Counted from the first letter of the whole stretch, positions 2,075 to 34,170 are shown. The stretch: DNA of 44,934 nt, filler included, from Jimgerdemannia flammicorona (GCA_003990765.1; 2 parts of 2 records of this genome joined end to end with filler, not necessarily neighbours in it), one strand, 5' to 3'. The notes: generated by a model not told the origin, from the sequence alone. Program-made: numbers and translations.

Positions 2075-2837
2075 CTCTGAGATTTGGCGTGATTAAGGTC
2101 GTGTTCTGCTTCAGAGACTCAGTTAGGGTGCATGTCCCCTTGTGGCCGATTCTGTTGTCTGAACATGAACAGAGGATGGATGAACGAACATGCACAGATC
2201 ATGAGTTTGATTCCATCACAGTGCTTCACACAGTCCCGACATACATCCAAGGTTCAGCGTGGTCAAGGTCGTGTGCTGTTTGAGAGACTTGGGTAGGACG
2301 CGTGTCCCCTCGAGGCTGACGCTGTTCACTGAACATGAAGAGGAGATGGATGAGCGGATCGCACAGATCGAGAGCTTAATTTCATTGTGCAGCTGCCCGC
2401 AATGCTTCACATAGCTGACATACTTTCGAGATTCAGCGTGGTCAAGATCGTTTGCTGCTTCAAAGGTTCGGCTAGGGCGTGTGCCCCCTCGTAATGCTGT
2501 TGTCTGAACATGAACAGGGATGGGTGAACGAACACCCACGGATCGTGAGCTTGATTCCATCGTGTAGTTTTTCACACAGTTCGACATACCTTTGATATTC
2601 AGCGTTGTTAACGTCGTGTTCTTCAGAAACTCGGCTAGAGCGGCCACGAGCAATCTCACTACCTCGACATGCCCGCAATCCGCGGCATAGCGTAGCGGTA
2701 TCGATTCCCCGTTGTCCTTGGCGTTGGTATCCGCCCCGAACTCAGTCACGAGAAGCCTCGCAACTTCGATGTAGCCTCCCTTCGTAGCCGTGCAACGTGT
2801 CCATCCCCTGTTGTCCTTGGCGTTGATGTCTGCCCAA
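2075..2837 (-). pseudogene. Ankyrin-repeat + 28-aa LRR (RI/NLRC3-like) gene fragment; exons ~2837-2590, 2503-2424, 2328-2245, 2158-2075
   Basis: Two ankyrin repeats (GADINAKDNRG..GYIEVARLLV; GADTNAKDN..GHVEVVRLLV) run into LRRs (NSVSLEGTRVLPKSLKQHTTLTTLNLG). Two LRR exons are exactly 84 nt, flanked by GTATGT..CAG introns. One LRR exon is 80 nt, giving a frameshift. Confidence 0.8.
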
Positions 2838-3756
2838 TGATCTTCAAAAATATCTTTGCCTTTGCATTCCGTAAGTTGTTGATGAATTGGTCAACAAAGT
2901 CCATTCATTTTTTGAAGATACCCCCAAGATGACGAACCGACAATGGATGACCGCCTGAAAGGCGACTAACATTCATTGCATTGTCATCATTGATGTGATT
3001 TAAACGTTGAGATGCCCATTGCCGAAAGAGAGTGCAATTTTTAATGTTGCGAGAATTTTGATATTCTTCGATACTCGGTTGAAAATTCTGAACAAAGATT
3101 AGCACCCTTTTTTGGTCTCTGGGTCTCCCTCAGTTGTATGTTTGAGATCTTCCATATTGTCAAGATAAAACACCGCTTTCTAACTTGGCCATCACTGGAT
3201 TTTGTCGAGTCTTTGGCTCTTGATGTTGATGTCGAGAAATCCAGCAATCAGTGAGATTACTGAATCAGAGCTTGGGTTCCCAACAAGAGATATATCACCA
3301 ACACTTTGTCAGAGTGGGAGTTCTTGACCGCTTGGAATTGCCAATACCGTTTTGTACAATTATATTCTGCTTTTCAACCAACTATTTAATATGTAGTTGA
3401 TATCTTGCAGTGAACAGAATACAAAAGGCAAAACTGATGCTGAAAAAATTCAAGATGTAAAAAAAGTAAAAGAGGAAGCAGTTGTGATAAACAACATGAA
3501 CATGAAAGATAAAAATAAAATAATAAGATCACTCTAAAAGCATCCTACCATACATTTCCAAGCGAACAAGCCCACTCCACCGCTGTTTCAACGTTCAAGC
3601 AACCCTCCCAGCTCAAAAACAAAATGGACAAAAAAAAAAAAAAAAAAAAGGACAGAAGGCTTTTTACATAACGTGGTGCAAAAACAACTCACCCCATCAT
3701 AACCATGCCATCCGCCGAACCTCCCCTACAATTAATTCAATCCTTCCTGACTCACA

Positions 3757-5577
3757 TCACAGCATCTTCCTGCTCCTCCACATCTTTTTCTTAGTCGCGT
3801 ACTGTGTGATCAGTGGCTGCGTCGTCGACGACGTCGCTAGTATGTCCTCAATCCCCCCCGTCCCTTCCTCCGCCTCCAGCGCCTCTGAGAGTTCCGCCTC
3901 CTCTTTATCCTTGGATGAGGAGAGCGCAGGTGCTGGGATTGACGGCCAGAGCGTGCGTGGTTTCAGGTCCGTCAACGTGCTGGGACGTGTAGGAAGTGGG
4001 AAGAGGAAGGTTAGCACGTTGTTGTAGGGGTCAATAGGCGGATAAGCGGTCGGTATGGTTTTTGTGGAAAAAAAAAAAAAAGGATGAAAAGGGTTTACCT
4101 ATCCTGTGGGTCATTATAGAAGCTTGGACTTATGGGTACTCTCCTGTTACGACTTGATGAGAATATGATATCGTTAAAAGGCAGTCATGTATCCAGTACA
4201 AGTCCCAGAAGCAGCCATACACTCAACACGCATGCACCCTACCGCTCATAGCCAAGCAAACTCACAGTATGATTGCAAACTTTTCCTTCGCCGCGTCCCT
4301 CACCACCGCCGCCGCCTTCCTTCCTACCACCCCTTTTCCCTTCCCCGTCTCCACGAACGGGTTCCCCAGCAACTCGAGCGTCGCCTCTGGCATATTCCCT
4401 GCCGACGGCGTGGTCGCCCGACCCCTCGCGCCATACCTCGGCCCGCCCGCCGAATCCCTCGACGGCGTTCGCGGTGACTTCTGAATCCGCCTCGCCGAAG
4501 CCTTGGGAGTTTCAAACAGCCTCTCGCCTTCTACGGAGGATCCCGTATCTTCGCCGGTTTTTCGCTTGGGGGACGTGCCAACGGGTGTCGTGACGCGATC
4601 CTCGCTGAGGGACCGACAACGACGGCGCTGATTCGGGCTCGGAGAGGGCGCCGTCGCGAGCTTGCGGTGTTTTCTGCCAGCGGAGGTTGAGCCCTCAGCC
4701 TTGGCGAGCGACTCGGAGGGAGAGGGCGAGACGCAGGCGTCGTTAGGGCGCTTGCGCATGCGAGTGGCGTAACGCTGGGTCCTGGAGGTCGAGGGAGTCG
4801 TTGGCTGAGGCGGCATGGTAGGGTCCGCGTCTGGGGTCCGAGTAGACCTTCTGCAAGCGCGCGAGCGGGTGTCGGAGGTGGTGGCTGGGATGGGGTACTG
4901 GTTTTCGTCATCGTTGGAGACGGTGTGGGGCGTGTGCGGGGTCGCGTGGGCGGGTGGAGTGGGTGTGGGTGGGCCGGGCCAGAGGAGCCTGGGTTTGTAG
5001 GTTATCGCAGGTTCTCCGGGGAACTGCGGGCTATTGTGCGAGGGGATTAGAGCAAGTTAATGTTTGCATCGTCTGTAACTTGATATTGTATCCCAGGTAG
5101 AGTGAACAAGCAGGCAGGGAAAGTTACCTATCTGGAACGTTGTCAAATGCTAGCTTCCTTCCGCGTCTGAATACGCGTTCAAAATGAAGACAAAATAAAT
5201 GGCCAAAATAAACAAACAACAATCCGCACCTAAAGCCCGCCATCGTCGTAACGAAACACCTACTTCACATAGGTTGTCTTGCCGGGCGTCAGTCTTGGCT
5301 TCACTCTAGCCTTCTTCCTGGGCGCTGCCGGGCAAACGGGTTTCTGTTCGATGAAGGGATTTTCCAGGTCGGAGACTTCCTGATCGGCCGGATCACCAGC
5401 ACCACTGTTGATGCTTCTGCCGTAAATGATCTCTGGGCTGCTGTCCGGCTGCTCTCTGGAACGGTGGGAGCGCGAGCCGTAGCCGACGGGACCTGGGGCA
5501 TTAGGGACAGGCAACGGGGGCGTGCGATTCGGAGGGGTCCGCCACAGGTCGGGGTTGTCTTGGTCGGGCGTGACCAT
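3757..5577 (-). CDS. Rum1/Sic1-like CDK inhibitor with two inhibitory modules, ~464 aa; exons 5577-5264, 5166-5128, 5030-4266, 4152-4099, 3979-3757
   Basis: Four phase-2 GT-AG introns give a continuous 1395-nt frame. Motifs NPF..TTYVKRGRK..KPRLLW and NPF..IILRNRRV..KPRTLW resemble S. pombe Rum1 NPF..YYVFRGKR..KPKLLF. Many S/T-P sites. The acceptor at 4153 (AAG) could instead be 4144 (CAG), in the same frame. Confidence 0.7.
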
Positions 5578-6303
5578 TGCTCAAGGAAGGAACAACAAAG
5601 TGGTGGCGTGGGGAGGATCAATCGTCAGGAAATGAATGATGGAATTCAGGTCGCTGATCACGTAAAGCATTACCCACCCAAATTAAAGTAGCTTATAAAA
5701 TCTCATAATTAGAAATGGTATAGAAATACAGAAATTTTAGTATACCTTATTTTTGTAATAGTTTGCAGACAAACAGTTATCTCGATCACTATGCACTTGC
5801 ACATTGCACACCTTTCTCGTTCAACCTATTACGACTGCACAGTTTAGGGGTATTCTTTATAGTTCTTCGAGCTGTGTGAATCTCAGACACCGTAACCCAC
5901 AACCGCCTAGCTATTTTAAAAATATCTCATAATGGAGTCGGAGGTAATGTTAACACCCAATGTGACATTCCAATTACAAGTATCTATCCAAATGAATTGT
6001 CAGTCGAAAAGATGCTTAGCGTCATCGTCAAAGGTAAAAAAGGTATGTTTTAGAATACACCTTAGGAGGGATATAGAGAATGAGAATATGGAAACGTGGA
6101 GCGAAAATATGGAAATCATATTTCGTAATCGTTGTCAAGTATAAGCACACAATCACACAATGGAGATACAAGCGATTAAATGCAATCAACCTTAAAGTTA
6201 TTCCAATATAAACTAGTAAAGGTGGCCAGGCACAGGACCGTGACCGTTGGTCAGTTGGTACCCGCACAGATAGTAGGGCTCATTCCTCGAAACTGGGTCA
6301 TTC

Positions 6304-6945
6304 TTACAAATAGGCTAAAGATAGGCTATGAATGTTGGTTACGAATTTTGACGAAAGAACTATAAACCTACAAATTTGCATCATGCTCGGACCCTTTTCA
6401 TCGCACGAACAAATGCCGGGAAAGCAGACAGTTTCCTTTTCTGACGAAGTAATCCTATCTCGAATGTATTCGTATTGCACGTGGGCTGAATATTTTTTGG
6501 TCGCAAGACTAGTAGAATGTGCCATAGCACCTTGATCAGATATCTTCAGGAAACTTATCTTCAGGAAACTTGCCTTAAGATCTAAGAAAATTGTTTTCTC
6601 GTGTGCAATTTCATGTATTCGCCTTCTGAAAGCCTCTTCAAGTATGTAATTTGACTGTAGTACACCTGTGACGAACAGTATGTTTGTTGGTGATCCCTTC
6701 ACGTCGAACATGGATTCACAGATCGTTTTGAAGGCATTCCGTCCTTGGCATCATCTTTGAAGAGGAATTGATTAATCTTTTGTTCCCTATGGTTATGGAA
6801 GATGTCATATAAATTTTAAATGCTAGACAACCACACTACTTACCGAAGATCAAGATCCCAGGCTTGAAAATCAGCACCAATATTAATAGCATGTAGTTTG
6901 CTCATTTCCTCCTTCAAAATAGCATCAATCCTCCTCAACTCTGAA
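6304..6945 (-). pseudogene. Degraded coding remnant, possibly the C-terminal part of another HSPA12/Hsp70-like gene
   Basis: ILFVTGVLQSNYILEEAFRRRI...SDQGAMA loosely resembles the Hsp70 adenosine/connect-2 segments. There is a GTAAGT..TAG intron near 6845-6788 and frame breaks. Confidence 0.3.
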
Positions 6946-7685
6946 ATTTCATGCTCATTCACGATAAAGTTACAGTAAGTACATATTACAAACTCGTGCT
7001 TTCGAAATTCAACCTACCCCTAGTCTCTGCCTCCATTCAGTTTCATCATCTACCTCTAGTCTCTGCCTCTGTTCAGTTTCATCCTCATATTTATCGAGGA
7101 TCCATTACGCGCCTTGGCGCGGTAGTAAGAGCATTGTCTTGCTGCCGGCTCGTGAGATTCGCGAAGATAGCTTGAAAAAGTTGAATGCTGTTTTTTTTTT
7201 TTTTTTTTCTAATATACTTCAGTCTTCCGCGAAATACTTTTATCTGTTTATGTGTCGAACTTCAGCCCAAATGTTGTACCAATGCAACAGCCCCAAGACA
7301 TAAAGACATTTCAGTTGTTATTGCTTATTGCGCCAAAGAACTTTGTATACCATACGGAGTTTGGTTCGCACTGAATTCGAACCCCCACCAACCCTATTAA
7401 AACTCATAGCATGCAAACACATTAAATGTCTAACAGGTTTGCTATTAGATGAATGGCGCACAGATTGTGGCCGTTTCTGTCATCAACATATGCCGCATTG
7501 TGTTCCCAAACATTCTGCACAATAAGGTTCGCATATGAAGATCTTAACTGGCAATATGTGAATTTCGTAGATAGTGTTCAAAGATCAAGAACGGAAGTAA
7601 AATTCTCCGCCTGGGAAAATCATTTGCTCGTGTCACTTGGGCTTAAAAACACATTGTAGTCTCAGTACTTCTAATTATTGCAAAA

Positions 7686-11747: not shown

Positions 11748-11815
11748 GCAACCCACATTAAAAGGAGGCACACAAGCTGCTTCCTCCACCTTCCCACGAC
11801 GCCCGGCCCGCCCAC

Positions 11816-13075
11816 ATGGACCCCCCATTATCCACCCTCAAACGCTTTGACCACCAAGTCGCCGGGCACGACTCCCTGTTGCAGCACCCGACCTCAGACC
11901 TGTTGGTCGTAAAGCCGTGCAGCGTCATCGAACGCGAGTTCTACGAGAGCGCCCGGACACGACCAGAAGTGGCTGAGTGGTTGCCCGAGTTCTTCGGGTA
12001 CCTTAGGATTGCGTCAGATGAGGAAAAGAGATTGTTGGGTAGGAAGGTGAAAGCGGAGGAGACGGAAGACGGAGTGGTTGGCAAAAAGATTGTGGGGATG
12101 TCGTTGAATCTGACGGGGCCGGATGATATCCTTTGTGTAATTCTGAACTTGCGCTCTCACCGCGCTCTTGTCATGCAACCGTCTCGTATAACATCCCTTA
12201 ACAAACCCCTGCAAACACACTATATCTGCTTAGAGAATATCGTTCACGGCTTCAAGCACCCCTGTGTGATGGACCTCAAGATTGGCACGCGCCTTTACAG
12301 TGACGACGCCTCCGATAACAAGCGCCACCGGATGCTCGACAAGGCCGCCAAAACCACCTCCGGAAGCCTGGGAATCCGGATCACAGGCATGAAGGTAACT
12401 CGCGGGATCAGGCATGCGCACGCGACACACCTCTCGTAGCTCACATACCTGTTCCCTAAATAACAGGTCTTTGAACCCACCTCCAACTCCTACACCGTCT
12501 ACACAAAACCTTTCTGTAAATCTTTCACACCAACCACCATCCTCTCGGGCTTCCTCGCCTACTTATTCCCAACCTCCGCCGCATCTGCCTCCATCCCCTC
12601 CCTCGACATCGCCGCAACATCTGTCGTTCCCGTCCCTGCCGACACAGACACACAAATAACCGCACGCGCGCCGATCCCCCCCGCCAAGAAGCGCTGGATT
12701 ATGCGCCGGTTCGTCGATGACCTAGAGGAATTGCACGAAACGGTCGAGGCAGCGCATGGGTTGCGCATGTACGGGAGCTCGTTGCTGTTTGTGTATGAGG
12801 GCGATCCGGAGGCGTTGGAGTGCGCGTGGGTCGCGGTTAAGGAGAGGCAGAGGAGGGAGGAGGAAGAGAAGAAGGAGGAGAAGGAGGAGGAGGAGAAGGA
12901 TGACGAGGAAGAGAGGGAACCGAAAATTATGGATTTGAAGATTATCGATTTTGCGCACTCGAAGTGGTTAGATGAGAGCGCCGGGCCGGACGAAGGAATT
13001 GTATTTGGGGTGGGAAACGCGATCAAGATGCTCAAAAGGTGCCTGGAAGAGCAGAAGAGGGAGAAGTATGTGTGA
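11816..13075 (+). CDS. ARG82: Inositol polyphosphate multikinase (Arg82/Ipk2/IPMK family), ~364 aa; exons 11816-12125, 12219-12394, 12467-13075
   Basis: HQVAGH, YICLENI, PCVMDLKIG (PxxxDxKxG), SSLL and IIDFAH motifs. The GT-AG intron 12395-12466 restores the frame. Intron 1 is AT-AC. Confidence 0.88.
12126..12218 (+). other. U12-type (minor spliceosome) AT-AC intron, 93 nt
   Basis: 5' site ATATCCTTT, branch site TCCCTTAAC (12194-12202) about 16 nt before the 3' CAC. Removal gives GPD-D-YICLENI in frame. Confidence 0.85.
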
Positions 13076-13861: not shown

Positions 13862-15054
13862 TTACTCCCGTCTGAGATTGTCGAGCCTCGCCTGCAGTGC
13901 GGCGTCGTCCGACATCATGCCCTCGGCCTGAGGTATGCGCTCGGCGGCTGCCGCCGAGCTTTGCTTCTGCTTGATGCCCGTGGGGGCGTCGACGAGCTGG
14001 AAGTGGGGGGGGGAAGGCAGGGACGGTGAGAAACCGACAACGCCGACAAAAACTTCGCACATACAGCACAAGAAAACCCAACACAACACAACACAGCGAC
14101 GCACCTCCTGGTTCAGGTCGATACCAATCTCGTCAAGGACTTTGTTGACGATCTCCTCGCTCTCCTCGGCGTCATCCTCTTCCTCCATCACGTCGTCAAT
14201 CACGTCGTTCATCATCTCCTCCTTCATGTCCATGATCTCAGATTCCCGCTCGAACTCCATCATGATGTTCTGAATCGCAGGGAGGTTCATCTGCCGGTTC
14301 ATCGACGACATGGCTTTCGTCGCTCCTTTCATCGCTTCCGCCATCTGCTGATTAGAGCGGAGTGTCTGGATACGGGGGAAGGGGGGTAGGGACGTGTGTA
14401 GAAAGGTGTGAAGTTATCCAAACAAACGAGGATGAAGTATCTTAAAAGGGTGTAAACCAGAATGGGACCGAGTGCTAACCTGTATGCGTAGGCCCACGGC
14501 CTGCAGTTGTGTCTTCATTTGGTAGAACTTTTGGATATATCTTCGCGTCCGAACCAGATCCTTGGCCATGACCTTGCACGCGCTCTGCAATTACGGAAGT
14601 GGGAGGGAAGATGGTGTGAGGGTGAAGCGAGCACGGATTTGGAGGTGGACGGTGAGGTCAATAGTGTCGCCATGATTGCAGACCCTGGTAATGGATTATC
14701 GCCGAGTTCGAAATGTGGGTAGTCCGTGTAGAATCCAAGACCACATCTCCAGAGTAGCTACATATACGCATACGCAGCCATCCGAAAGCCTACCTCCACA
14801 AACCGAACACCGTCAAAACATCTCCAACAGCCAGCTGTCCCACGGAAAACAACAAAAAAAAAAAAAAAAAAAAAAAAAAGACAAACCAGCTGATTCGCCT
14901 TGGCGGTCTTCTTGATGTCGGAGATCAGCTTCTTCTCTTGCGCCTCCAGCTTCACGCGCTCCCGGTCGAGCTCCCGCTGAGCCTTCTGCAGGCTCCGCTG
15001 GTGCTGACGCAACATCTCGGCGGGGGTCTTGCGGCGGCCAAAGAGGAGGTCCAT
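13862..15054 (-). CDS. DID4: ESCRT-III subunit Vps2/Did4 (CHMP2A), 222 aa; exons 15054-14887, 14584-14480, 14365-14105, 13996-13862
   Basis: MDLLFGRRKTPAEMLRQHQR, KVMAKDLVRTRRY, MAEAMKGATKAM and the C-terminal MIM-like DDAALQARLDNLRRE. Three phase-0 GT-AG introns. Confidence 0.97.
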
Positions 15055-16657: not shown

Positions 16658-19600
16658 ATGGCAGAGGTCATCTGGCACCCACAGGCAGAGGCTCTGCACA
16701 ACTTCATTTGCGACGCCTACACATCAACATCGCCCTCCATGGCGAAGGAGCTGCAGCAGGAACTGGAGAGATTCAAGCCAAGATTCTTGACACTTCTGGA
16801 CGACCCGCCAAGGAACGCAGATCATAGAGCAGAATTGCAGAGAGGTATATGGAAACTACCTATGATTTCCAATCCAAATATTTTTGCCGATTTTTTTTCC
16901 AACACGTACCGAAAACTAACCACAGCCCGCAACACGCGCAAATAGGCACAGTGAAAATCAACAAAGTCCAGCACCGCGTCAACGAAGGCTTCATCCACGA
17001 GACCAAACTCCTCTCTGACAACCTCGACATTGACGAATACCTCGCCGCGACCCTCCTCCAATATGGTACCCAACAGCGTTCTCGCTTCGATCGCCCCGCC
17101 TGCGAGACCGCCATCCTCCTCTACCATAGCGAGCGCGGTTATTTCCTCAACTGCATCGACCTCATCGTCAAGGGCGCCGCGAACGATTCCGTCCGCAATG
17201 ACATCCGCAGCGTCTTCGAACGCTTTGCCTCCGATCTCGTCGAAGCCGTCGTTCCACTCGGCCGCGGCTCCGCCGTGGGAAACGGCACCTTCGCCCAGAA
17301 GATCATGAAGACCATCGAGAACCTCAAGGCGCAGATCACATCGCTGACGGAATCGGGGGCCTTGGAATCCGCCATCGCGACGGCGGCGGCGGCGGCGGCG
17401 CCAAATGCGGGGGGAAGGCCAGGCAGACTAGGGGACGACATCACGAAGGACCGCATCAGGCGACTGAAGGAAGAGCGCAAGGAGCTCGCGCACATCCTCT
17501 TCCACATCTCGTACAACCGGCAGTTGGCCGCGAACGAGATTGTTATGCTGGCCGAGATGCTTCGGCGGGCCGACCTCACCGACGTCGTTACCATCTACTA
17601 CCTCGTCGCGCTCCTCGCGTCCATCGACAGTGTTCCCGAGCACGCCCTCGCCGGCAGCGCCGCGCCCGCACGTCACGACTCACTGGCGCTGAACAAAAGC
17701 TTTCTGAACCGGTTCAACGCGCTTATCACGCAACCCGACTGGTCCGTGCCGGCACTACGCGCCGTTATCACCCTGCAATGGACAATGTTTCTGGTGTTCG
17801 CGCTCAGTAAGCGGCCCTCGCTCCAGGAGGAGCTGCACTTTAAGTACGACAGGATCGAGCAGATGGTCGAGGTCAGCGTTATGAGCGACGCGTTCCAGTT
17901 CGCCACGCATTACGTGCTCGGATTTCGGGAGACCGAGTCGGAGAGGACGCTGATCGAGTCACTCACATTCTTGACCGCCGCTCCTCCCACAACGAACGGG
18001 AACGCCCCTACAGCGAACGGCACAGCCGCCCCCTCCCCCGCGGAAATTACAAAGGTCAGGCTGGAGGTGGACCCAGATTTCCATTGGTACATCATCCATC
18101 AGTTCGAGCTGTTCGTCACGTCGTTCATCGCCAAATTTGCCGCCTACCTGAAGCGCACCAAGAATCGAGAGGAGGACGCCGTCTTCTCGCAGCACCCGTC
18201 GCGGCCCGCCCTCGCGGGCGCCGCCGCGAACACGACCCCGCGCCGGGACCTCGAAAGCTTTTTCCTTCTCATCTCGACTCTCTACCAGGACCGCCCGAAC
18301 GCTGGGCTCAGCTTCTGGGAGGACCCCGAGGGCCGCCTCTTCGGCTTTCTCAGGTGGGCGATCGACGTGCGCGTGCCGAGCATGGTCCACGCTCTCTTCG
18401 ACATGCTGGGTTCTCTCGCTACGGGGAACTTGTGTGCCCAGCACACATACGATTTTTTAAACACCAACGGTGGACAGCGCACGCTCCAACCGACAACCGG
18501 CCATCACCACGTCGTCTCGTGGACCGCACTCTTCTCCGCCCTGGATTTCTACTCCACCGGACTGAAGAACGCGCCCCCCGTCGCCCCCCCCGCAGCCCAA
18601 GCTCCTGAAATTCCGCCGGACGAGATTAAGCTCTTGAGATCCTTCCTGCGGCTGCTCCGGCAGGTCGTCAAATACTCACCTACGGCCCGCATGACCCTCT
18701 ACGAGAATCAGCAGTACCGCGTCATGTTCATGCTCTTCAACCTACTCGGGTGCGCCATCCCCGTCGACCTCAAGGCCGCCCTGTTCGACACCATCGCCGC
18801 CTTCTGCGCCCCATCGGGCATCGCCGGAAACATCGGGGCCGAGCTCGCAAAGTCTGTTTGGGTCGTCCTCGAGCAGGCTCAAGTGCTTACCACCGTCAAG
18901 GGGAGCGTGCAACAGCTGCAATATACGCAACAGACGCAGCTCGGCGGAGCACCCGTGCAACAGCAGAGGGAGGAAGCCCAGGGGATATTGTTCGAACTGC
19001 AGGAGATCGAGTCCGCGAACGAGACCTATCCGGAGACGCTGGCGTTCGTGAACCTGCTCAACACACTCGTGCACGTCCCGTCAAAGAACGCCGCCCTGCG
19101 TTCGGGGTTCGGCGTCGGATCGCCCTCCATCCCCGAGAACCTGGGTGCCGGGTATCGCCCACCCGGCGGGATCATCCCATACGTTAGCTTCGTCATTGAT
19201 CATGTGCTGCTCAAAGCCAACACGCGTGGATACCTGCACCCTGCGGAGAAGTGGCGGGTGATTGAGACCTCGCTTAAACTCGTCGAGAAGTGCCTGATCG
19301 CGTACGACCTTAGCGGCCTCACCATTGACGCCTCCGTCGCCAACATCGCCGCACCGCAACAGCCCACCGCCGCGGGCGCTGCCGCGGTAGCCTCCGTCTC
19401 TTCAGGCACGCAAAGCCTGCTCTCCTATTACGTGCACCCGGGGTTCGAGATCATGTGCCGCTTGCTGTGCGGGTCGAAGCTTCTCGATGAGGTTTTCCGC
19501 ATCATTGGACTAGGCGTCGACGCAGTCAACGAAAACTCCATGAACACGGCGTTCTTCCGAAAGGCCGTGCTAAGGTGCTTGCGCATCGTGTCGCGTGTCA

Positions 19601-22325
19601 TACACATCCAGGAGGTCTTCCTAGACATCCTTATCCCAGGTATCACCGATAACCCGGGCCTCGTTGCGCCCGCTAAGCCAAGCCTGCCCCCGTCACTTGT
19701 CCAGATTGATCAGTTACTTCTATATAGGCAGACCGTCGTCATCCAGATAGCGCTGTTCGTGAATTGCACTGATGGAGAAGAGATTTGTCTGCTGGCCGTC
19801 AAGATTCTGGCAGCGCTGGCGGAGTCGCCGTACTTCAACGGGACTGAGAGATTGGTGGGCGGAGGAAGGATCAACCGGCTCGTCGGGATGCTGGATGCGA
19901 GCGACGAGTCATTGCGCATCTCCTACGGGTTCTTCGAAAGGTTGGAGGTAGACGAACCCGAGAAAGGGACGTCGCAGTACAACGAGCAGGACACGGACAC
20001 CATCCCTTTATTGCTCGAGAACCCTGGGGCGGAAGATCTGGACGTCGGGCAGCCAGGCATGGCGAACTCGGTCCGGCTGGCCATACTGCAGATCCTGCTC
20101 GACAACGTGAGCGGAACAAAGGTACCTCCAACCATTGCGCACTTCCTGCTCGGTTACAGCCTGCGCGGCAATATCTCGCAGACGGAAATCAAGGATCCGA
20201 CCTCCACCGATGCTAATATGTCGTGTCTGCATGTGATCCTCGACCTGCTCAGGGAGGGCATCCGGAAAGATGACGACCTGGACATAGATGGCGCAAGAGT
20301 GTCGCACGGTGTCCCGCTGTTTGTCAAGCATCCGACTCTGGCCGAGCGTTGCTTCCACCTCATCTACAAGCTGTGCTCCGACGCCAATACGTCGTCTCCG
20401 ACTATGCGCTACCTGCGCAACCGCGAGGACTTCTTCCATAGGCAGTTCAAGGCAATGCCCGTGCGGCTTGATCGGCGCGATAACGGGCTCGGTGGAGAGA
20501 TTATTGGAGCTGACGGCGTGAAATCCACGGTCGACTACGCGTCGTTGCTGGCCCAGCTTCACCAGCGTGCGTGGCTCATGAAGACAGTCGCGCTCGAGCT
20601 GCACCTTACCACCAACGCCGGACAGAGATCGCATACGCAGCGGCTACTCGAGCTCATGTTCAGCACCACTGAGACCGATCAGCCCGGCGATGAGGATGAT
20701 TCGGAGATGGATGCGGGGGAAAGCGATGTGGGGAACACGTATGGGAAGTCCAAGTTCCAGCAGCCGTTGATGAAAATGCTCGAGGTGTTGAACTCGTTGA
20801 ACTTTGTGTGGAAGGACTCGTTTGGGAGAGAGGAAATAGATTTGTATTATTTTGCCGGGATCAGTCTTGAGGCTTATTTGCGAGTCAACGAGCGGCTGTG
20901 TCACGTTTATGACATTCGCGCCATCTATGCCTTCTTGTTGTCGTGGCAGAACCAGTTAGAGAAGCAAGGGGCCATCACGACCGTGGGCCATCGCAACATC
21001 ATTAAAGGCGAGATCAAACGGATCCTGCAGCACTGCATCGCCGAGAACCACACCCGCGAACTGATTCACGCGCAGATCCACTGCCTCGAAGCATGGAAGC
21101 AGGTGGTGGAGATCACATTGGCCAAGTGCTTTGACCTGCTGGCCACGGAGGTGCGCGAGTCGATCCTGTACAACCTCATCTCGGCCCTCCTGCCCAAGAT
21201 CAACGACGAGGCCGCCCACGTCGTCATGGCCGAGAGCCTCAGCAGCGTCGTTCTCTCCCTCATGACCAAGCTACGTCAGGACCGCCATCGCCAGGCCGTG
21301 CTGCAGGCTGCCGTTGTCTCAGACGACAGCGCTGCCCTACGCCTGCCCACCGACAGGTTGCATGTCATCTTCAAGGGCCTGATCGAGGGCATCCAGAGGC
21401 CCGGCACTAGCGTATCTATGCGTGGGAACCTTTACACCGTCCTCGTCAACTACCTGCAGTACACCAACAACGAGACAGATCCCGTCGCCGTCGCGCTGCG
21501 CTCCCCATTCCTTGGCAGGGGGCCCGACCGGTCCATCCTCATGGGTGTCGAGGACTCGTATTCGTTCGATCCCTCGGCCTCCTTCGTCAGTGGTAACGGG
21601 AGCGGCCAGCGCGGTACTCTCGAGGCGGGCAATATCGCCATCGTCAATGTGGCCGGCGACAAGTTCTTCGATGTACTGTGTCGGGACGCGTCAGACGGGA
21701 ACGACGTCTGGAAGACGGCGGCGTTCACGGCCCTCGACGCGCTGAGCGTGCTCATGAGGCGTGAGAAGAATAACCGAGTGCTGCAGTATATGGTCAGGCG
21801 GAACTTCTTGAGACACTTTGTCGATATGGTCAAGAAGGACGATGAAGAGTTGCAACAGGTTTTGCAGCCGGATCCGGGTGAGTGGAGGGATTATTACCGA
21901 GTCATGTTGAACATACGTTGGAGACGCGGATCAACACGCTCACTGTTTTGCATCTCTTGTAGAATCTTTGAATGCATTGTACGTCTACGAATCGAAGATG
22001 TCCCTTTTCTTGCGGATCTCACAGAGGCGGGATGGTGCCGAGAAGCTTTTGGAGAATGGCGTGATTGAGATCCTCGCGCAGAGCCAGTTCTTGGATCAGC
22101 GTCCCGAGATCGATATGAGTCTCACAGGTATGGCATTGTCATGAGCACGGCCAAATATATGGAAACAGCTTGACTGAGGAATAGTCTTTACTCAATTAAT
22201 CAGGGGTTGATACGTTCCTGCCGCCGGCAACTGAGCGGTACCATCAGTTGTTGCTGCCTGCCTTACAGTTGATCGTCGGGATCCTAGCGACTATGGGCCA
22301 TGAAAATACTTCGGTGCTCAACAGA
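16658..22325 (+). CDS. NUP192: Nucleoporin Nup192/Nup205, 3'-partial (1802 codons visible); exons 16658-16844, 16946-21877, 21963-22127, 22204-22325
   Basis: LSDNLDIDEY, ELQEIESANETYPETLAFVNLL, IPENLGAGYRPPG, PTIAHFLLG and TMRYLRNREDFF are typical of the Nup192/205 family. GT-AG introns keep the frame. A donor at 22326 runs into the assembly gap. Confidence 0.93.
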
Positions 22326-26953: not shown

Positions 26954-27479
26954 ATATATAGATCAGATTAGATTATAGAATACTATTTATATATTATAAA
27001 AACTGAAAGTTAAAAAGAATTTAAGTTAATATTTAATTTAATATTTTAATATATATATAAATTTATATAAAATAATATTTAGACTTTTTATTTAAGTATT
27101 CTATATAGATAGATCTTTATTTTTATATAAATTACTATCTTTTTCTTAACTTGCTTTATACTATTATATATATTAGTTAGTTCTAGAAAAGATTTATACT
27201 TTTAGAAAATTTATAGTAAACTAATTATTTTTTTAAATAGTTTATTATGAAATAAATTTAATTTAAATATTATCCAAACTAAGATAAGATATATATAAAT
27301 AAAATTATATTTAGTTTAAGATTAAATTTAATAATAGATAAAATCAATTTAGAAATAACTTTATATTATAAATAAATCTAACTTTAATTTTTGATAAATG
27401 AAATAAATAATAATTTTCAAATAATTAAATTTATTAATAAAAATTATAATCTTATATAACTAAATTAAAATATATTCAG

Positions 27480-27940
27480 ATAGTGAGATAGCTGAATAGT
27501 GAAAAGAGAAGAAGATGGGATGCTTTGAGGAAATAGTTAGTAGAATATATAAATAATAAGTAGCTTACTATTGAATAAGTATTAGTAATATAGGTAGAGT
27601 TGACTAGTACTGACTATATATATTTGAGGATAGAAGGCAGATAATTTTGAAAAAAAGAATAGTATAGTGAAAGATATTGATGGTGGATATTTTTTTCAGC
27701 TAGCAGCAGGAGTGGGTCCTTAGAGAGGCTGCCATCACTGCCTGATATTGGGGATTTATAAAAAGAGTAATAATTGAGTTAAGGTAGTTAAAGATCTGAT
27801 TATTTTTAAAAGAGAAAAAGTGAAGAAGAGATAGTGTATTAAGAGAGATAAGGTGGAGTTAGGTTGGAGCTATAATATATTATAAGAAGTATATAATTAT
27901 TATAGATTAGTTAAAAATAAAAAATAAAATAAAATAAAAT
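27480..27940 (+). mobile_element. Decayed LINE 3'-end fragment with A-rich tail
   Basis: Reverse-complement similarity to ~29980-30340, followed by an A-rich tail at 27913-27940. Confidence 0.55.
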
Positions 27941-27948
27941 ATATTTAT

Positions 27949-29063
27949 TATAATAAGTAAATAACTCAGTATAGTTAGATGATATAAATACTCAGTATAA
28001 TATAGTTATCTATATCTAGTTACTTATATATATCACTATTTATATAATTAGCCAAAGATACTAAATTAGATTTATTAATCTATATTCTAAGGATATCTAT
28101 ATCTATATCTATTAGATATATATACTTATATCTATCAAACATACCTATATCTAGTAGATAAATCTGGTCACCTCTTTCTCTAAATAGCAGTACTATGTAT
28201 TCTATAGTTAGCTAGATAGCAATCAGATAGAAACTACAATTGTATAAAATATTCCAGAGATAAGAGTAAATAAACCTCAGTCTAAAAAGTTCAAAAGTAA
28301 AAGTCGATTATCTGGTATATTTAGAAAAAATATCTATAATAAGTCTCTTAATTCAGAAAGAATTATAATACTTAGGAGATATGTCTACTAATGAGCTACT
28401 GAGCTTTACCTTATTCTTACTCTAGTCTTCTTTCTAATATAAAAAAATCTACTACTTATAGCCAGTCTAGTATAAGATACATCTTTGTAGTAAATCAATT
28501 TGTATAAATAAAGCAATCTTTGATATAACTTTGAGAAGTCTATTATAAATTAGAATACTTACTAGACTAAGTCTGAAGAACATTATTAAGTAATCTACTA
28601 CTTAAGAAAAAACTACTATTTTTAAGTAAATTACTAATTCAGAAAGAATCTAAGTAAACAAAGTTATCTGCCAAATCTGCTGCTTAAGAAAAAATTACTA
28701 TTTTTAAATAAACTGCTAATTCAGTGAGAATTTGCATTACTTACTAAATTATCAACTTACTGTTGTATATGAAAGTCTGTCAGATTACTTATATAATATC
28801 AGATTATTATATAAAAATCATATATATATATAAACTATTCTTGCTATATATATAATTTACTCAAAAAGAAACCTACTGAAATTGCTGAATTATTACTATA
28901 TCTAAGAATCTATTTTAATAAGAAAATTGTCAGAATTATCTATATTATATAAATTTATACTAATATCTATTGAACATTTTATTGTTTTTTGATAAAGTAA
29001 CTGAGGGCTTAAGTCAAACTATATAATAGCCCTTTATATCCCATTTGCATAGCCCTACTATCA
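27949..29063 (+). mobile_element. Hypermutated LTR-like element, family B (~1.1 kb)
   Basis: Aligns with the reverse complement of 39759-40709, e.g. GAACATTTTATTGTTTTTTGATAAAGTAACTGAGGGCTTAAGTCAAACTA vs GAACATTTTGTTGCTTTTTGACAAAGTAACTGGGGGCTCAAGCCAAACTA. Contains TGTATAAAAT..AATAAACCTCAGTC, like the family A TATA/polyA block. Confidence 0.65.
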
Positions 29064-29480
29064 TTAGTTATATCTGGATTTTTTTCTAATCTACTATCAC
29101 ACTACCATCAGCTATTATATATCTGTCTCTAGTAATAGTTCTGCTAGCCTCTATATCTGTCTTGCTCAGTATCAACTCTCCAGTTCTCTTACTACTAATA
29201 TGTTTCTCTCTCTAGACTTACTGCTTTAAGTATCTCTAGGTCAACTCTCTACTTTGTGAGTAAAACTCATTGGTCTCTGCTCTCTACCACTCATACCTGG
29301 CAACTGACTTCTACTATACTCTCTCTGTCCACTTATATCACCAAAAATCACATTTCTATACTATAGTTCTTTCTGACATATTATCAGTAGAAGACCCCAG
29401 TTCTATCCAATTCAGTATATCTATTAGAGCTATTATATATTATTATATTACTAATACCTATTCTTCAAAAAGTATATAAA
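29064..29480 (-). mobile_element. Decayed fragment homologous to the 5' portion of the adjacent LINE-like element
   Basis: Same-orientation similarity to ~33745-34170 (TATATCTGGATTTTTTT..ATCTACTAT; CTCCAG[T/C]TCTCTTA). Confidence 0.55.
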
Positions 29481-29867
29481 AAGAGATAAAAGATATTTAT
29501 ATTATATAAATTATTAGAGAAAGGTATTATTATTTAAACTTTACTTAATAGTAACATTATTATTTTCAATATATTTTTTTGTTTAAATTCTATATAGAAT
29601 TCTCAAATATATTAGAAAATTATATAATATAGATAAATAATTAATTAATTATAATTATAAAAAAGTATACATACTTATAGATATGAATAAAAATATTTAA
29701 CTCATATTCCATTATAATATAATTAAAATTTTATCTATATTATACTCAAGATAGATATAGATATTATAGTTTATATGTATATAATCTATTTTATAGTATT
29801 TACTACTATTCTTGACTTTATTTAATAAAATTAATTAATAATATAATTACTATATAGCTAATAGCTA

Positions 29868-29916
<49 letters not shown>

Positions 29917-32900
29917 TTAAAGCACTAGGTCTCTTTATTAATCAATATATAATTAATACATAATCCTCATACTACACCAGTAGTCTCAACTCAACCCAAC
30001 CATCTTCTACTCTAATATACTCTCTTCTCTTTACTCTTTATATCTTTAAAACTATCAGATTATTAATCACCACAACCCTCCTACTACTTCTCTCATATAT
30101 CTCTTTCATCAGCCATCTATAACAATCTCCTTGAGGGCCCTACCCCCTTCATCAGTCTGATAGAACATCTACTATCAATCTCTCTCACCTTGTCATCTTT
30201 GAATATATATTACTATTATTCAGTCAACCTCACTCATATTACCAATGTCTACTCAATAATAAGTTACTTATTACCAACATAGTTTACCAACCACTCTCTT
30301 AAGTTATCCCATCTCTCTCCTTCACCACTATCTCACTACTATATCTCTAGATAATCTCTAACTATTACTTATAGGTTACTAAGTATATTATACCCTCTCA
30401 ATCAATATTCTGGTATCTATATAATTCTTCTCTCCTATCTGATATTATAATAATTCTTGTGCTCAAAAGCCCCTCCTTCTATCAAGTATCCCAATCTAAA
30501 GTTTAATATAATATTTCTTTTTAAGATATACCACCATACTACTTAGAACCTTAGTAGAAGCCACTGCCATACCTCAGCATTTTAAGATCAGACTTTGACA
30601 CAGTCTTATACCTTACTAATATCTGTGAACTACCAGCTCATTAATAATAAATTCTGTCTTACCCCCTATTGATACTCAATGCTAGCACTAATATTAAAGT
30701 CTAATACTGATAAATTATTTAATTGAAGCCTATATTACTTCTATATCACAGGTCTCTATTATATCTCTCTCTTATTAACTCACTAATATAGATCAATACA
30801 GTGAGCCCATTCTACTATGTATCTCTTATCAAAATTCTCTATACTATAAGTGACAACTGCCTCTCAGTCTAATTATTGAAAATAAATTATCAGAAGATTC
30901 TCTAGAAGAGAACCATATCTCTTAGATCTTCTATATCAAAGACAAATACTCTCTACTCTATAATGTGACAGCTCTCTTCAACCACTAAGCTATAAGATAA
31001 TATAATCTATTTAGAAAGTCTGTATATATATCTTCTCCTTCTTCTTCAATACTCACTTCAACTTCTCAACTTCTAGCAGAACTCACCCTAGTCTCTAATT
31101 CTCTACATCCTTCTGTACCAATAACTCTGCCTACTTCAGCTATAATATCTCTATTCTATAGGAGATCCACCTTACTCACCACCTTTACTATACCCCTTTA
31201 AACTTTCTAGCCTTACTTCAATATAACTTAGCAGCTTTTTTCAACTTTATTTAGTAGACTCCAACTAGGAATCTCTTACTTTTCTAGTATTTAATCTTTG
31301 TCTCAATGTCTGCTATTTATATATTTTACAACTTCTCTCCTTTAACAATAAAGAATAGATATACTAATATCCAGGTCTATTACCACCCTCTCCAAGCTGA
31401 CCACACCCCAACAGTCTCTAATGATCAGACTAAGAGTACTATTCTATCTCCAAGGTCTCTCAAATATTCCATCCTCAGTAATTGACTTCCAGTATTAATA
31501 TATCCTTATCTCAAATTTATTTACTCAATGAGTATAAATCTTCTAGTCACTCTATACTATTCTGTTAGTATCTATAATAAACTTAGACTCTTCACTTCCT
31601 CCCAAATATCCAAACTATCACTATAGCCTACAGTACTCCTCTATCTGTCATTTCTGTCTATTAGTATATTTTACACTATGTTAAAGTCCTCTCTCAGTAT
31701 ATCTATACCAGCTTTAGCAATAGCTCTATACTCTAGAAGCTCATTCAGCTACTCTATACAATCACCTCTCACTACTGAGTAACAGCAAGAACCTACTACA
31801 ACTAGATCTCACTCTGGCCTTTGCCACTCTCCTCATACTAAGTAATATCTCTATCCCCCAATCTCACACAGTTCCCCCTTATCTTTCTACAGTAGAATCT
31901 CCACCTTATCTCTCCAAATAGTCTCACTACTCCATTTACTTATCTATATCTATATATCTAATTTCTCCTCACAGTACAAATCCTGCACCAAAATAAGATC
32001 TGCCTCAAAGCTTTAGAGCTAAGCAAAAATATTTCAATATCTTACAGAATCCCTCAGATTATTCACATTCAGTAAGAAATTGTTAGTTATACTATTTATC
32101 AGAAAATAATATTTTATAATATCTCTATTCTCTTCATAATTCTATACTTATTTCCTCTCTAGCTATATCTAGTTTATACTCTATATTAACTTCAACATTC
32201 TCAATCTTCTTAGCCTCCAAACCAGCCAGTATCTCTACTATCTCCTCATTATTCTTAGCCTTTATCAACTTCTTATACTTCTCACACACTGTCTGTCAGA
32301 TCAATAATCTATGCTACTATTTCTACCAGAAAGCAGTATACTCCTCAGTAACTACTACCAGATTAGCCTCTCTTTTCACATCTATCTCATAGCTCTCAGC
32401 CTTCAATATTACTATCAGAATCTCAGACATCAGCCTTTTCACCATATCTATACTACTCAATACTCTCACTCCAGTCTTCTTACTGATAATATATTAAAGG
32501 TCTAACTCTCTCAGCTTATCTATAGCCAACTCTCTTCACACTGAAACTATTCAGTAAGTATCTCTTAGTCTACTCTCAACTAGAGTCACCAGTCTCTCTT
32601 CTATCAATATAGTAGCTTTAGTTCCAGTACTAGCTGTCTTATCTTACTTCTCCTGTAGAATATCATATAATTTATCCTTTCTTACTCTGACCATCTGTTC
32701 TCTCTTCTATGTCTAGTACTCCAAACCTGACTCTATATATGCCCCTCATCTCTATATCCTCTATACTATACTTCTTATGAACATTGGCTCACACTAGGTG
32801 TTTTTTCTTCTCATTTCATTCTTTAAGTATATTATTATTAAAAAGCTACTAATCTCTTACCTTCTTATTCAATACTGTAGCCTCTCCCTTCTTCTCCTCT

Positions 32901-34170
32901 CAACTTATAGTCTAGTCACTCTTCTTTGCTTCTTTCATTCACTACTTCCTTACCTATCTCATTATCCTCTCCATTAAACTATCAAGTAGATCTCTCTATC
33001 TCTTTCACTTCTGAGCCTTCTACCATATTACTTTATTTATATAAATCTTCTTTTTATTCTTTACTTCTAAATATATTAATGCCAAATAAGCCCACCATAC
33101 TTCTGTACAATGCTCTATAACTCTACTGAGATCTTCCAGAGCTTTCTGCAAATTCTCTTCTCCTTTTCACTTTTTTTTTTATCTATATTATCTTATAAAC
33201 AAAGTCATCTCACTTCAATACTATAGGCCATTCAGAGCTTTCTCAGTAGTGTCCTTCCAAGCAGATCAGAGCCTAATATTCACATCTTCTATTCTGAATA
33301 TTGTTCTCTCTCATACTCTAAATCTAATATTAATCACCTTTCTATACTTCTTTATTATCTCCTCAACTCTTCTCTTTATATATCTCAAGAATTATCACTA
33401 TAGATATCTCCTTCACCAGAAGCTATATAACTCTTAGATTCTATTTCAGATATCTAGCCATTGATACTACTACTTTACCAACTGACAGTCCAGTTTTCAA
33501 GATCTTCTCCAATGGTCTCACTTTCTCAAACTCTATCTCAACTCCTTTAAGTCTATACCAGAACTTTGCTCAGATAACTTCAGCAAATTAGTTTATAAGT
33601 AGACCCAAAACTATCTTAGCAGTCATTATAATCTTTACAAAATATAAAGTAATAGCAAATTTTGAAATCAACTTCTTGAGTAATAGAGCTACTATTAACC
33701 CTATTATATATTAGCCAGATTTTCTATCCTCATGTTTGCCCTACTATTAGCTATTATATCTGGATTTTTTTTTTTCAGATCTACTATTACTCTATCATAA
33801 GAAGTTACTTTTTGGACCCCAGTAACTGTCTCTCTATCTCCTATGCCTGTCTTATCAAGCAATGTCCCTCCAGCTCTCTTAGTACTTAACTTTTTCTTCT
33901 CTCTCAGCTTGCTATTTTGAATATCTCCAGACCAACTACTATCTTTTATCTTATCTATAAAGCTTATCTGGTCTAACTTTCTATAAATCATATCTGGCCA
34001 TTAACTTTCTCCAACTCTCTTCTAGCTATCAGTATTACCAAAGAAGCCTATCTTTATATTATATTCTCTTCTGATATCTTGTCAGTCAAATACTCCAGGT
34101 CTATCTAACCCAGTATTATTGTTAGATCTCTCATTTATTGATATATTATAAATAACTTTTTTCTAAAATC
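29868..34170 (-). mobile_element. Heavily eroded non-LTR retrotransposon (LINE, APE + RT, possibly RTE-like)
   Basis: (TAA)n tail on the minus strand at 29868-29916. Residual motifs: LR*GY (for LRQGC) near 31503-31517, RLNTRK near 31285, LKKKEKIY near 31030-31050, LDYKL (SDH-like) near 32905. Purine-rich coding strand, almost no CpG. Confidence 0.55.

Follow-up and report, generated by a model that had tools for sequence, protein, structure and literature searches.

A gene on the minus strand of a 44,934-nt stretch of DNA from Jimgerdemannia flammicorona (GCA_003990765.1; two parts of two records of this genome joined end to end with filler, the whole stretch being referred to here as the window) was found to be expressed, to be spliced through two micro-exons and to encode a protein of 464 amino acids (aa) that contains two diverged copies of one module. 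The motifs and their arrangement make it probable that the product is a Sic1/Rum1-type stoichiometric inhibitor of cyclin-dependent kinases (CDKs), the inhibitory unit of which was duplicated long ago, in a fungus of the Endogonales. Being short and disordered, fungal inhibitors of this type are notoriously difficult to detect by sequence, and to our knowledge they have been characterised almost solely in ascomycete yeasts.

The gene occupies positions 3757–5577 and consists of five exons (314, 39, 765, 54 and 223 nt) and four introns (97, 97, 113 and 119 nt), all four introns having GT..AG ends and lying in phase 2. Splicing yields a reading frame of 1395 nt, which starts with the ATG at 5577 and has an in-frame stop two codons upstream. 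Contigs from three public runs were aligned to positions 3300–6100; runs X1 and X2 are only presumed to consist of RNA and are possibly from the same organism as the window, and X3 is a root metatranscriptome with sequences 95–99 % alike. One 1471-nt contig of X1 (record 3, depth 81.8) corresponds without gaps to 5645–5264, 5166–5128, 5030–4266, 4152–4099 and 3979–3756. Because this contig is contiguous over all four joints, it indicates a single gene, spliced as predicted, with both modules on one transcript. Three joints (4152/4266, 5030/5128 and 5166/5264) are present in the joint table of X1, with plus-strand ends CT..AC that equal GT..AG on the minus strand. The fourth, 3979/4099, is missing from that table and visible only in the aligned pieces, since the poly-A run of intron 4 was skipped as a repeat in the alignment. 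The same three joints were recovered in X2, and record 12 of X3 spans 3979/4099 with 105 and 46 letters either side. Contigs from which the four GT..AG introns are gone are not genomic DNA. An initial annotation of the window, based on its DNA sequence, had proposed this exon structure and suggested RNA sequencing as a check: its exons, micro-exon sizes (39 and 54 nt) and peptide strings proved exact, all four joints were found on one X1 contig, and neither a different splicing pattern nor a division into two genes was seen in that contig. The gene has the following parts:

5578..5645, minus strand: 5' untranslated region (UTR), at least this far; record 3 of X1 extends to 5645, and no ATG lies within
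5264..5577, minus strand: exon 1, 314 nt, acidic leader with serine/threonine-proline (S/T-P) sites and the N-terminal half of module 1 (ENPF ... GKTTYV); joint 5264/5166 in X1 and X2
5167..5263, minus strand: intron 1, 97 nt, GTAGGT..CAG, phase 2; sequence and transcripts
5128..5166, minus strand: exon 2, 39-nt micro-exon (K)RGRKLAFDNVPD(S), which bears the RxLxF-like RKLAF and is absent from the public model; sequence and transcripts
5031..5127, minus strand: intron 2, 97 nt, GTAACT..TAG, phase 2, interrupting an AGC Ser codon; sequence and transcripts
4266..5030, minus strand: exon 3, 765 nt, C-terminal half of module 1 (YKPRLLWP), 201-aa basic S/T-P linker and N-terminal half of module 2 (GNPF ... 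KFAII); sequence and transcripts
4153..4265, minus strand: intron 3, 113 nt, GTGAGT..AAG, phase 2, its donor read through to a stop in the public model; sequence and transcripts
4099..4152, minus strand: exon 4, 54-nt micro-exon (L)RNRRVPISPSFYNDPQD(S); sequence and transcripts
3980..4098, minus strand: intron 4, 119 nt, GTAAAC..CAG, phase 2, interrupting an AGC Ser codon; joint in X1 record 3 and X3 record 12
3757..3979, minus strand: coding part of exon 5, 223 nt, C-terminal half of module 2 (LKPRTLWP), acidic tail, basic C-terminus and stop codon TGA (3759–3757); sequence and transcripts
3668..3756, minus strand: 3' UTR, at least this far; X1 record 2 (3668–3785) and X3 record 11 (3693–3843)

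Some variation in processing was also observed. An alternative in-frame acceptor AG is situated 9 nt within exon 4 (4143–4152), and its use would delete Arg-Asn-Arg of module 2; the acceptor used in the contigs is the upstream one, at 4152. Contigs of X2 that retain intron 3 (4136–4295) have a depth of 8.2, with a variant at 4.6, compared with 22.2 for the spliced form. Retention of this intron would yield a protein that stops at KFAIIL and has just the first half of module 2, and these contigs could represent pre-mRNA, DNA carry-over or a real isoform with one and a half modules. Record 1 of X1 (depth 12.9) gives weak evidence of a 144-nt intron within the 3' UTR (3612–3755, GTGAGT..AG, minus strand), which would begin one base past the stop codon; this single contig has just 30 letters on one side of the joint, and the unspliced form has a depth of 80.7. 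Long runs of A on the plus strand, both skipped as repeats in the contig alignment, are located at 3620–3659 and 4056–4093, the latter being the coding-strand T-tract of intron 4.

The public protein model for this gene is wrong. A phmmer search with exon 3 against 1.84 billion representative proteins returned two proteins, P0001, which is the gene itself, and P0002, a 120-aa fragment. P0001 (360 aa; 'hypothetical protein BC938DRAFT_472090 [Jimgerdemannia flammicorona]'; lineage Mucoromycota, Endogonales) is 100 % identical to the window. This model splices exon 1 straight to exon 3, omitting the 39-nt exon, and further on it ignores the donor of intron 3 and continues to a stop, so that it ends in KFAIIL. 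It is truncated, being without 104 C-terminal and 13 internal residues, and exons 4 and 5 are absent. Both the RxL-like motif and one half of module 2 lie in the missing micro-exons and last exon, and without these parts searches of protein databases cannot recognise the protein. P0002 shares 52 % identity with the last part of the linker and with the N-terminal half of module 2, including conservation of ETPK/KSPRTPS (TP/SP sites just ahead of module 2), NPFVE and GKGK. It ends (…GVLL) at a Leu equivalent to the last residue of P0001. From this end point, it seems that another organism has a phase-2 intron at the conserved place, with a GTGAGT-type donor, and that its model reads through this intron in the same way.

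The spliced protein contains both of the module strings that the initial annotation had named, ENPF..GKTTYVKRGRKLAF..YKPRLLWP and GNPF..KFAIILRNRRVP..LKPRTLWP. These belong to two modules separated by a long linker:

4976..5370, minus strand: module 1, residues 70–136, exons 1–3, with NPF (73–75), TYV (102–104), RKLAF (108–112) and YKPRLLW (129–135); from alignment and motifs
4373..4975, minus strand: linker, residues 137–337, isoelectric point (pI) 10.8, 16 S/T-P sites, the last ~45 residues conserved in P0002; from composition
3940..4372, minus strand: module 2, residues 338–404, exons 3–5, with NPF (341–343), FAIIL (369–373), RNRRV (374–378) and LKPRTLW (396–402); from alignment and motifs

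Local alignment of residues 1–250 with residues 251–464 gave a score of 102, compared with 40.7±6.6 for shuffled sequences, none of which scored as high in 1000 trials. The alignment between the modules is collinear, leading from a Gly-Tyr-Gly-x-Arg patch by way of NPF as far as KPRxLWPxxPxP. Counted from the N of NPF to the Trp, module 1 spans 63 residues and module 2 spans 62. Codon 105 is interrupted by intron 1 and codon 373 by intron 3, each site lying 32 codons past the N of NPF (residues 73 and 341), while introns 2 and 4 each follow GAT AG and cut an AGC Ser codon. The internal duplication is therefore real, and the earlier observation that the two modules are split at equivalent positions by phase-2 introns holds for both the protein alignment and the intron positions. 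At the DNA level, no similarity above that of shuffled sequences was detected among the four introns or between the paired exon parts; the best pair was intron 1 with intron 2, which is a non-homologous pair, and its score was matched by 11 of 500 shuffles. Since no residual DNA similarity is left between the copies, the duplication is old and both copies have been retained.

The two modules are not identical in content. Where module 1 has TTYVK, module 2 has FAIIL and no Tyr, and the RKLAF of module 1 corresponds to RNRRV, which has no RxL-like motif. The segment between NPF and TYV of module 1 includes six prolines; the corresponding stretch of module 2 (residues 353–368) is free of Pro and Gly, rich in Ala and Lys and, from its composition, predicted to be helix-prone.

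The protein as a whole is basic (pI 10.0) and is dominated by Pro (63), Arg (46), Thr (45) and Ser (44), which together make up 198 of the 464 residues; on this composition it is predicted to be intrinsically disordered. It has 23 S/T-P sites, a number reached by one of 5000 shuffles (12.1±2.9 expected), and three sites have the full S/T-P-x-K/R form. Four sites are located in the acidic leader (residues 1–69), 16 in the linker and three within the modules, with clusters of TP sites, for example at residues 14–19 and 140–151. Thus 20 of the 23 sites fall in the leader and linker, outside the putative inhibitory domain, as in the Sic1/Rum1 type. The linker matches its earlier description as long, S/T-P-rich and basic, and several basic clusters resembling nuclear localisation signals (NLSs) were noted along the protein. 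A second allele or strain was encountered in X2 (window 3814–5462), with 13 exon differences (3 synonymous and 10 non-synonymous), an in-frame 3-nt deletion near codon 61 and, in intron 3, six substitutions and one insertion. All of the exon differences are in the leader, linker or tail and none is in either module, in variant contigs that cover only part of the gene. At most, this hints that the modules are under stronger constraint.

When a four-element pattern of the Sic1 type was applied, module 1 showed all four elements in order and module 2 showed two of the four, the comparator positions being partly those named in PMC3504315 and partly presumed. The proposal in the initial annotation that the protein is Rum1/Sic1-like is supported in part, by the four motifs of module 1, their order and their overall length, and it gained no statistical sequence or profile link from the Pfam, PDB, Atlas or protein searches. 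On these motifs, the Sic1/Rum1 assignment is plausible.

Several results weigh against this assignment. An hmmscan of Pfam-A (E≤10) gave no family for any of the three long-exon translations, and PDB sequence searches gave no match in three of three. No entry of the ESM Atlas reached 0.8; the best, at 0.77, was a cluster named for SLD2, a replication regulator, and this level is often reached by shuffled proteins. The phmmer search with exon 3 found nothing beyond the gene itself and P0002 among the representative proteins. Word-based searches gave none of 8000 candidates for exon 3 against longer proteins, self only among 8000 candidates for P0001 at near length, and self only among 13 candidates for residues 62–128 of P0001. 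The queries were single exons or the defective public model, and each module is spread over three exons. On the comparator side, NPF (217–219), V251, L263 and K272-P273-K274 of Sic1 and the Rum1 motifs NPF, YVFRGKR and KPKLLF are presumed. NPF is also a classic ligand of EH domains, and RKLAF resembles a PP1-docking RVxF motif as well. Finally, the helix assigned to L224–R239 of Sic1 in PMC3504315 contrasts with the Pro-rich stretch of module 1.

The negative searches are weak evidence, because the queries were single exons or defective, the modules are split between exons and, in libraries as large as these, short disordered motifs seldom attain significance. Further searches were also negative. 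The Cip/Kip CDI model (PF02234) had no match at E≤10 in the three long-exon translations. A metagenome scan with the alignment of exon 3 and P0002 gave 232 pattern matches, none of which was confirmed, and the degenerate pattern KPRxLWPxxPxP occurred at at least 117 loci; no relative was recognised among the matches listed. The best tblastn result among these (L075, E 0.03) was rejected as a stop-filled frame on a bacterial contig, and two others (L031 and L022; KPRILWPSIPAP) were rejected because NPF and the other module parts are absent upstream. A literature search, covering sources outside subscription journals and supplements, retrieved no such protein in Mucoromycota, no report of a tandem inhibitory domain, no printed Sic1 or Rum1 motif strings and no AlphaFold model of the Sic1 inhibitory domain.

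A serious rival is that the protein is not a CDK inhibitor and is instead a disordered CDK substrate or other nuclear regulator with duplicated short linear motifs, its likeness to Sic1 and Rum1 being convergent or due to chance. This is possible, and no search returned any family. Short motifs arise readily in disordered proteins, many CDK substrates are enriched in S/T-P sites, and the best Atlas row, despite a score often matched by shuffled proteins, belongs to a replication regulator. However, the occurrence of four motifs in the order and total length of Sic1 is judged hard to obtain by chance.

A more doubtful alternative is that both modules are active inhibitory domains and that one molecule clamps two cyclin-CDK complexes, the same or different, at once. 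NPF, KPRxLWP, a basic patch and a hydrophobic strand recur in both modules at like spacing (63 and 62 residues), and both modules have survived from a duplication so old that no DNA similarity is left. In addition, the N-terminal half of module 2 is conserved in P0002, and the listed allelic differences spare both modules. The absence from module 2 of Tyr (FAIIL at the position of TYV) and of an RxL-like motif (RNRRV for RKLAF) speaks against this view, so that two equal inhibitory heads are possible but not favoured. An endocytic or trafficking adaptor-like protein that binds EH-domain proteins through two NPF motifs is very improbable; the two tripeptides do lie in a disordered context and NPF is the canonical ligand of EH domains, but there are only two, each inside a conserved module of ~63 residues with other conserved parts, the pI of 10.0, the NLS-like clusters and the 23 S/T-P sites better fit a nuclear cell-cycle protein, and the Pfam scan of the three long exons revealed no endocytic domains.

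Under the favoured reading, that of a duplicated Sic1/Rum1-type inhibitor, the protein would be a nuclear, intrinsically disordered inhibitor of cyclin-CDK complexes. The duplicated unit would comprise S/T-P sites followed by an inhibitory module of about 63 residues, introns included. Module 1, in which all four elements are kept, would be chiefly responsible for blocking the CDK: RKLAF would dock on the cyclin, and TYV and KPRLLW would act on the kinase. Module 2 has kept NPF, the helix-prone Ala/Lys stretch, the hydrophobic strand, the basic patch and KPRTLW, and its Tyr and RxL-like motif are lost. For this module, the role of a second but non-equivalent contact, or of a cyclin-specific variant, is likelier than that of an equal second inhibitor. 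By analogy with Sic1 and Rum1, the leader and linker are likely to be phospho-regulatory parts, and phosphorylation by CDK of their 20 S/T-P sites could inactivate the protein or mark it for degradation of the SCF (Cdc4/Pop1) type. We tentatively propose a wider scheme, in which the Sic1/Rum1 inhibitory domain would predate the Dikarya and an early-diverging, root-associated fungus would carry an old tandem pair in one polypeptide. The first copy, which still has Tyr and RxL, would inhibit fully, and the second, with the helix kept and Tyr and RxL lost, would be a non-equivalent contact. One molecule might then grip a cyclin-CDK complex at two sites or bridge two complexes, forming a two-headed brake gated by multisite phosphorylation.

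The genomic context was also inspected. The neighbours are ordinary eukaryotic genes, and no CDK or cyclin gene was identified in the window. The neighbouring open reading frames (ORFs) with matches are:

2216..2890, minus strand: ankyrin-repeat ORF; ORF match
11762..13075: inositol polyphosphate kinase ORF; ORF match
13862..14413, minus strand: Snf7 ORF; ORF match
16828..22068: ORF for the nucleoporin Nup192, an open frame of 1746 aa, E 1e-270; ORF match

The gene is flanked by AT-rich DNA, and the genes of the window have a GC content of 50–62 %. Very AT-rich blocks (GC 0.19–0.27) and a 4-kb stretch with a strong excess of C over G (GC skew about -0.5) were seen among 1–2000, 27001–30000 and 30001–34000. 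None of the cell-cycle promoter words MCB, SCB and E2F was found upstream of the gene, from 5578 to 7000. One ACGCGT is present in intron 1, at 5173, and the window contains eight in total.

If the kinship is true, this gene anchors the Sic1/Rum1 family deep in the fungal tree, and the combination of NPF, TYV, RxLxF and KPRxLW within ~63 residues provides a motif set for finding further members. It would also offer a natural two-module form with which to probe the role of valency in stoichiometric, switch-like inhibition of CDKs. A practical warning is that a wrong public protein model hides the gene from searches of protein databases.

Comparison with known inhibitors is most detailed for Sic1 of Saccharomyces cerevisiae, which inhibits Clb-Cdk1. 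PMC3504315 places the inhibitory domain at residues 215–284 and names 32 of these, including the helix L224–R239, then I244 to T249, and further Y250, K260-R261-R262, K268-R269-R270-F271 and F277. According to PMC7399826, the minimal inhibitory fragment is the last 70 residues, and the domain is considered a relative of the p27 domain in both function and structure; residues 1–215 are described in bioRxiv 10.1101/2020.03.02.973354 as bearing CDK sites and docking motifs that trigger destruction. In common with module 1, Sic1 has the order NPF, TY(V), a basic Arg-Arg/Lys-Leu element and an aromatic-KP-basic-x-L-aromatic element, of which its NPF, V, L and KPK are presumed. The span from N217 to F277 is 61 residues, compared with 63 in module 1, N217 being presumed and F277 named in PMC3504315. 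Sic1 is fully disordered, as this protein is predicted to be, and in both numerous S/T-P sites precede a short segment that is inhibitory in Sic1 and putatively so here. Sic1, however, has one module, which is only C-terminal, whereas this protein has two, in its first third and its last third; here the last aromatic of the module is a Trp followed by a Pro, and an acidic tail of 60 aa extends past module 2, both of which are unlike Sic1.

The presumed strings NPF, YVFRGKR and KPKLLF of Rum1, the Schizosaccharomyces pombe inhibitor of Cdc13/Cig2-Cdc2, closely resemble NPF, YVKRGRK and KPRLLW in module 1. Rum1, a protein of 230 aa with one module, differs in this from the two modules and 464 aa found here. 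It is a small disordered CDK inhibitor, and its control through the CDK sites T58 and T62, outside the inhibitory region, is given in PMC7195536; the protein described here is predicted to share the disorder and has most of its S/T-P sites outside the modules. The Cip/Kip proteins (p21, p27 and p57; Pfam CDI) are likewise disordered stoichiometric inhibitors, with an RxL motif that docks on the cyclin and a Tyr that enters the kinase. In p27 the RxL motif comes first, unlike the order here, where NPF and TYV precede the RxL-like RKLAF of module 1.

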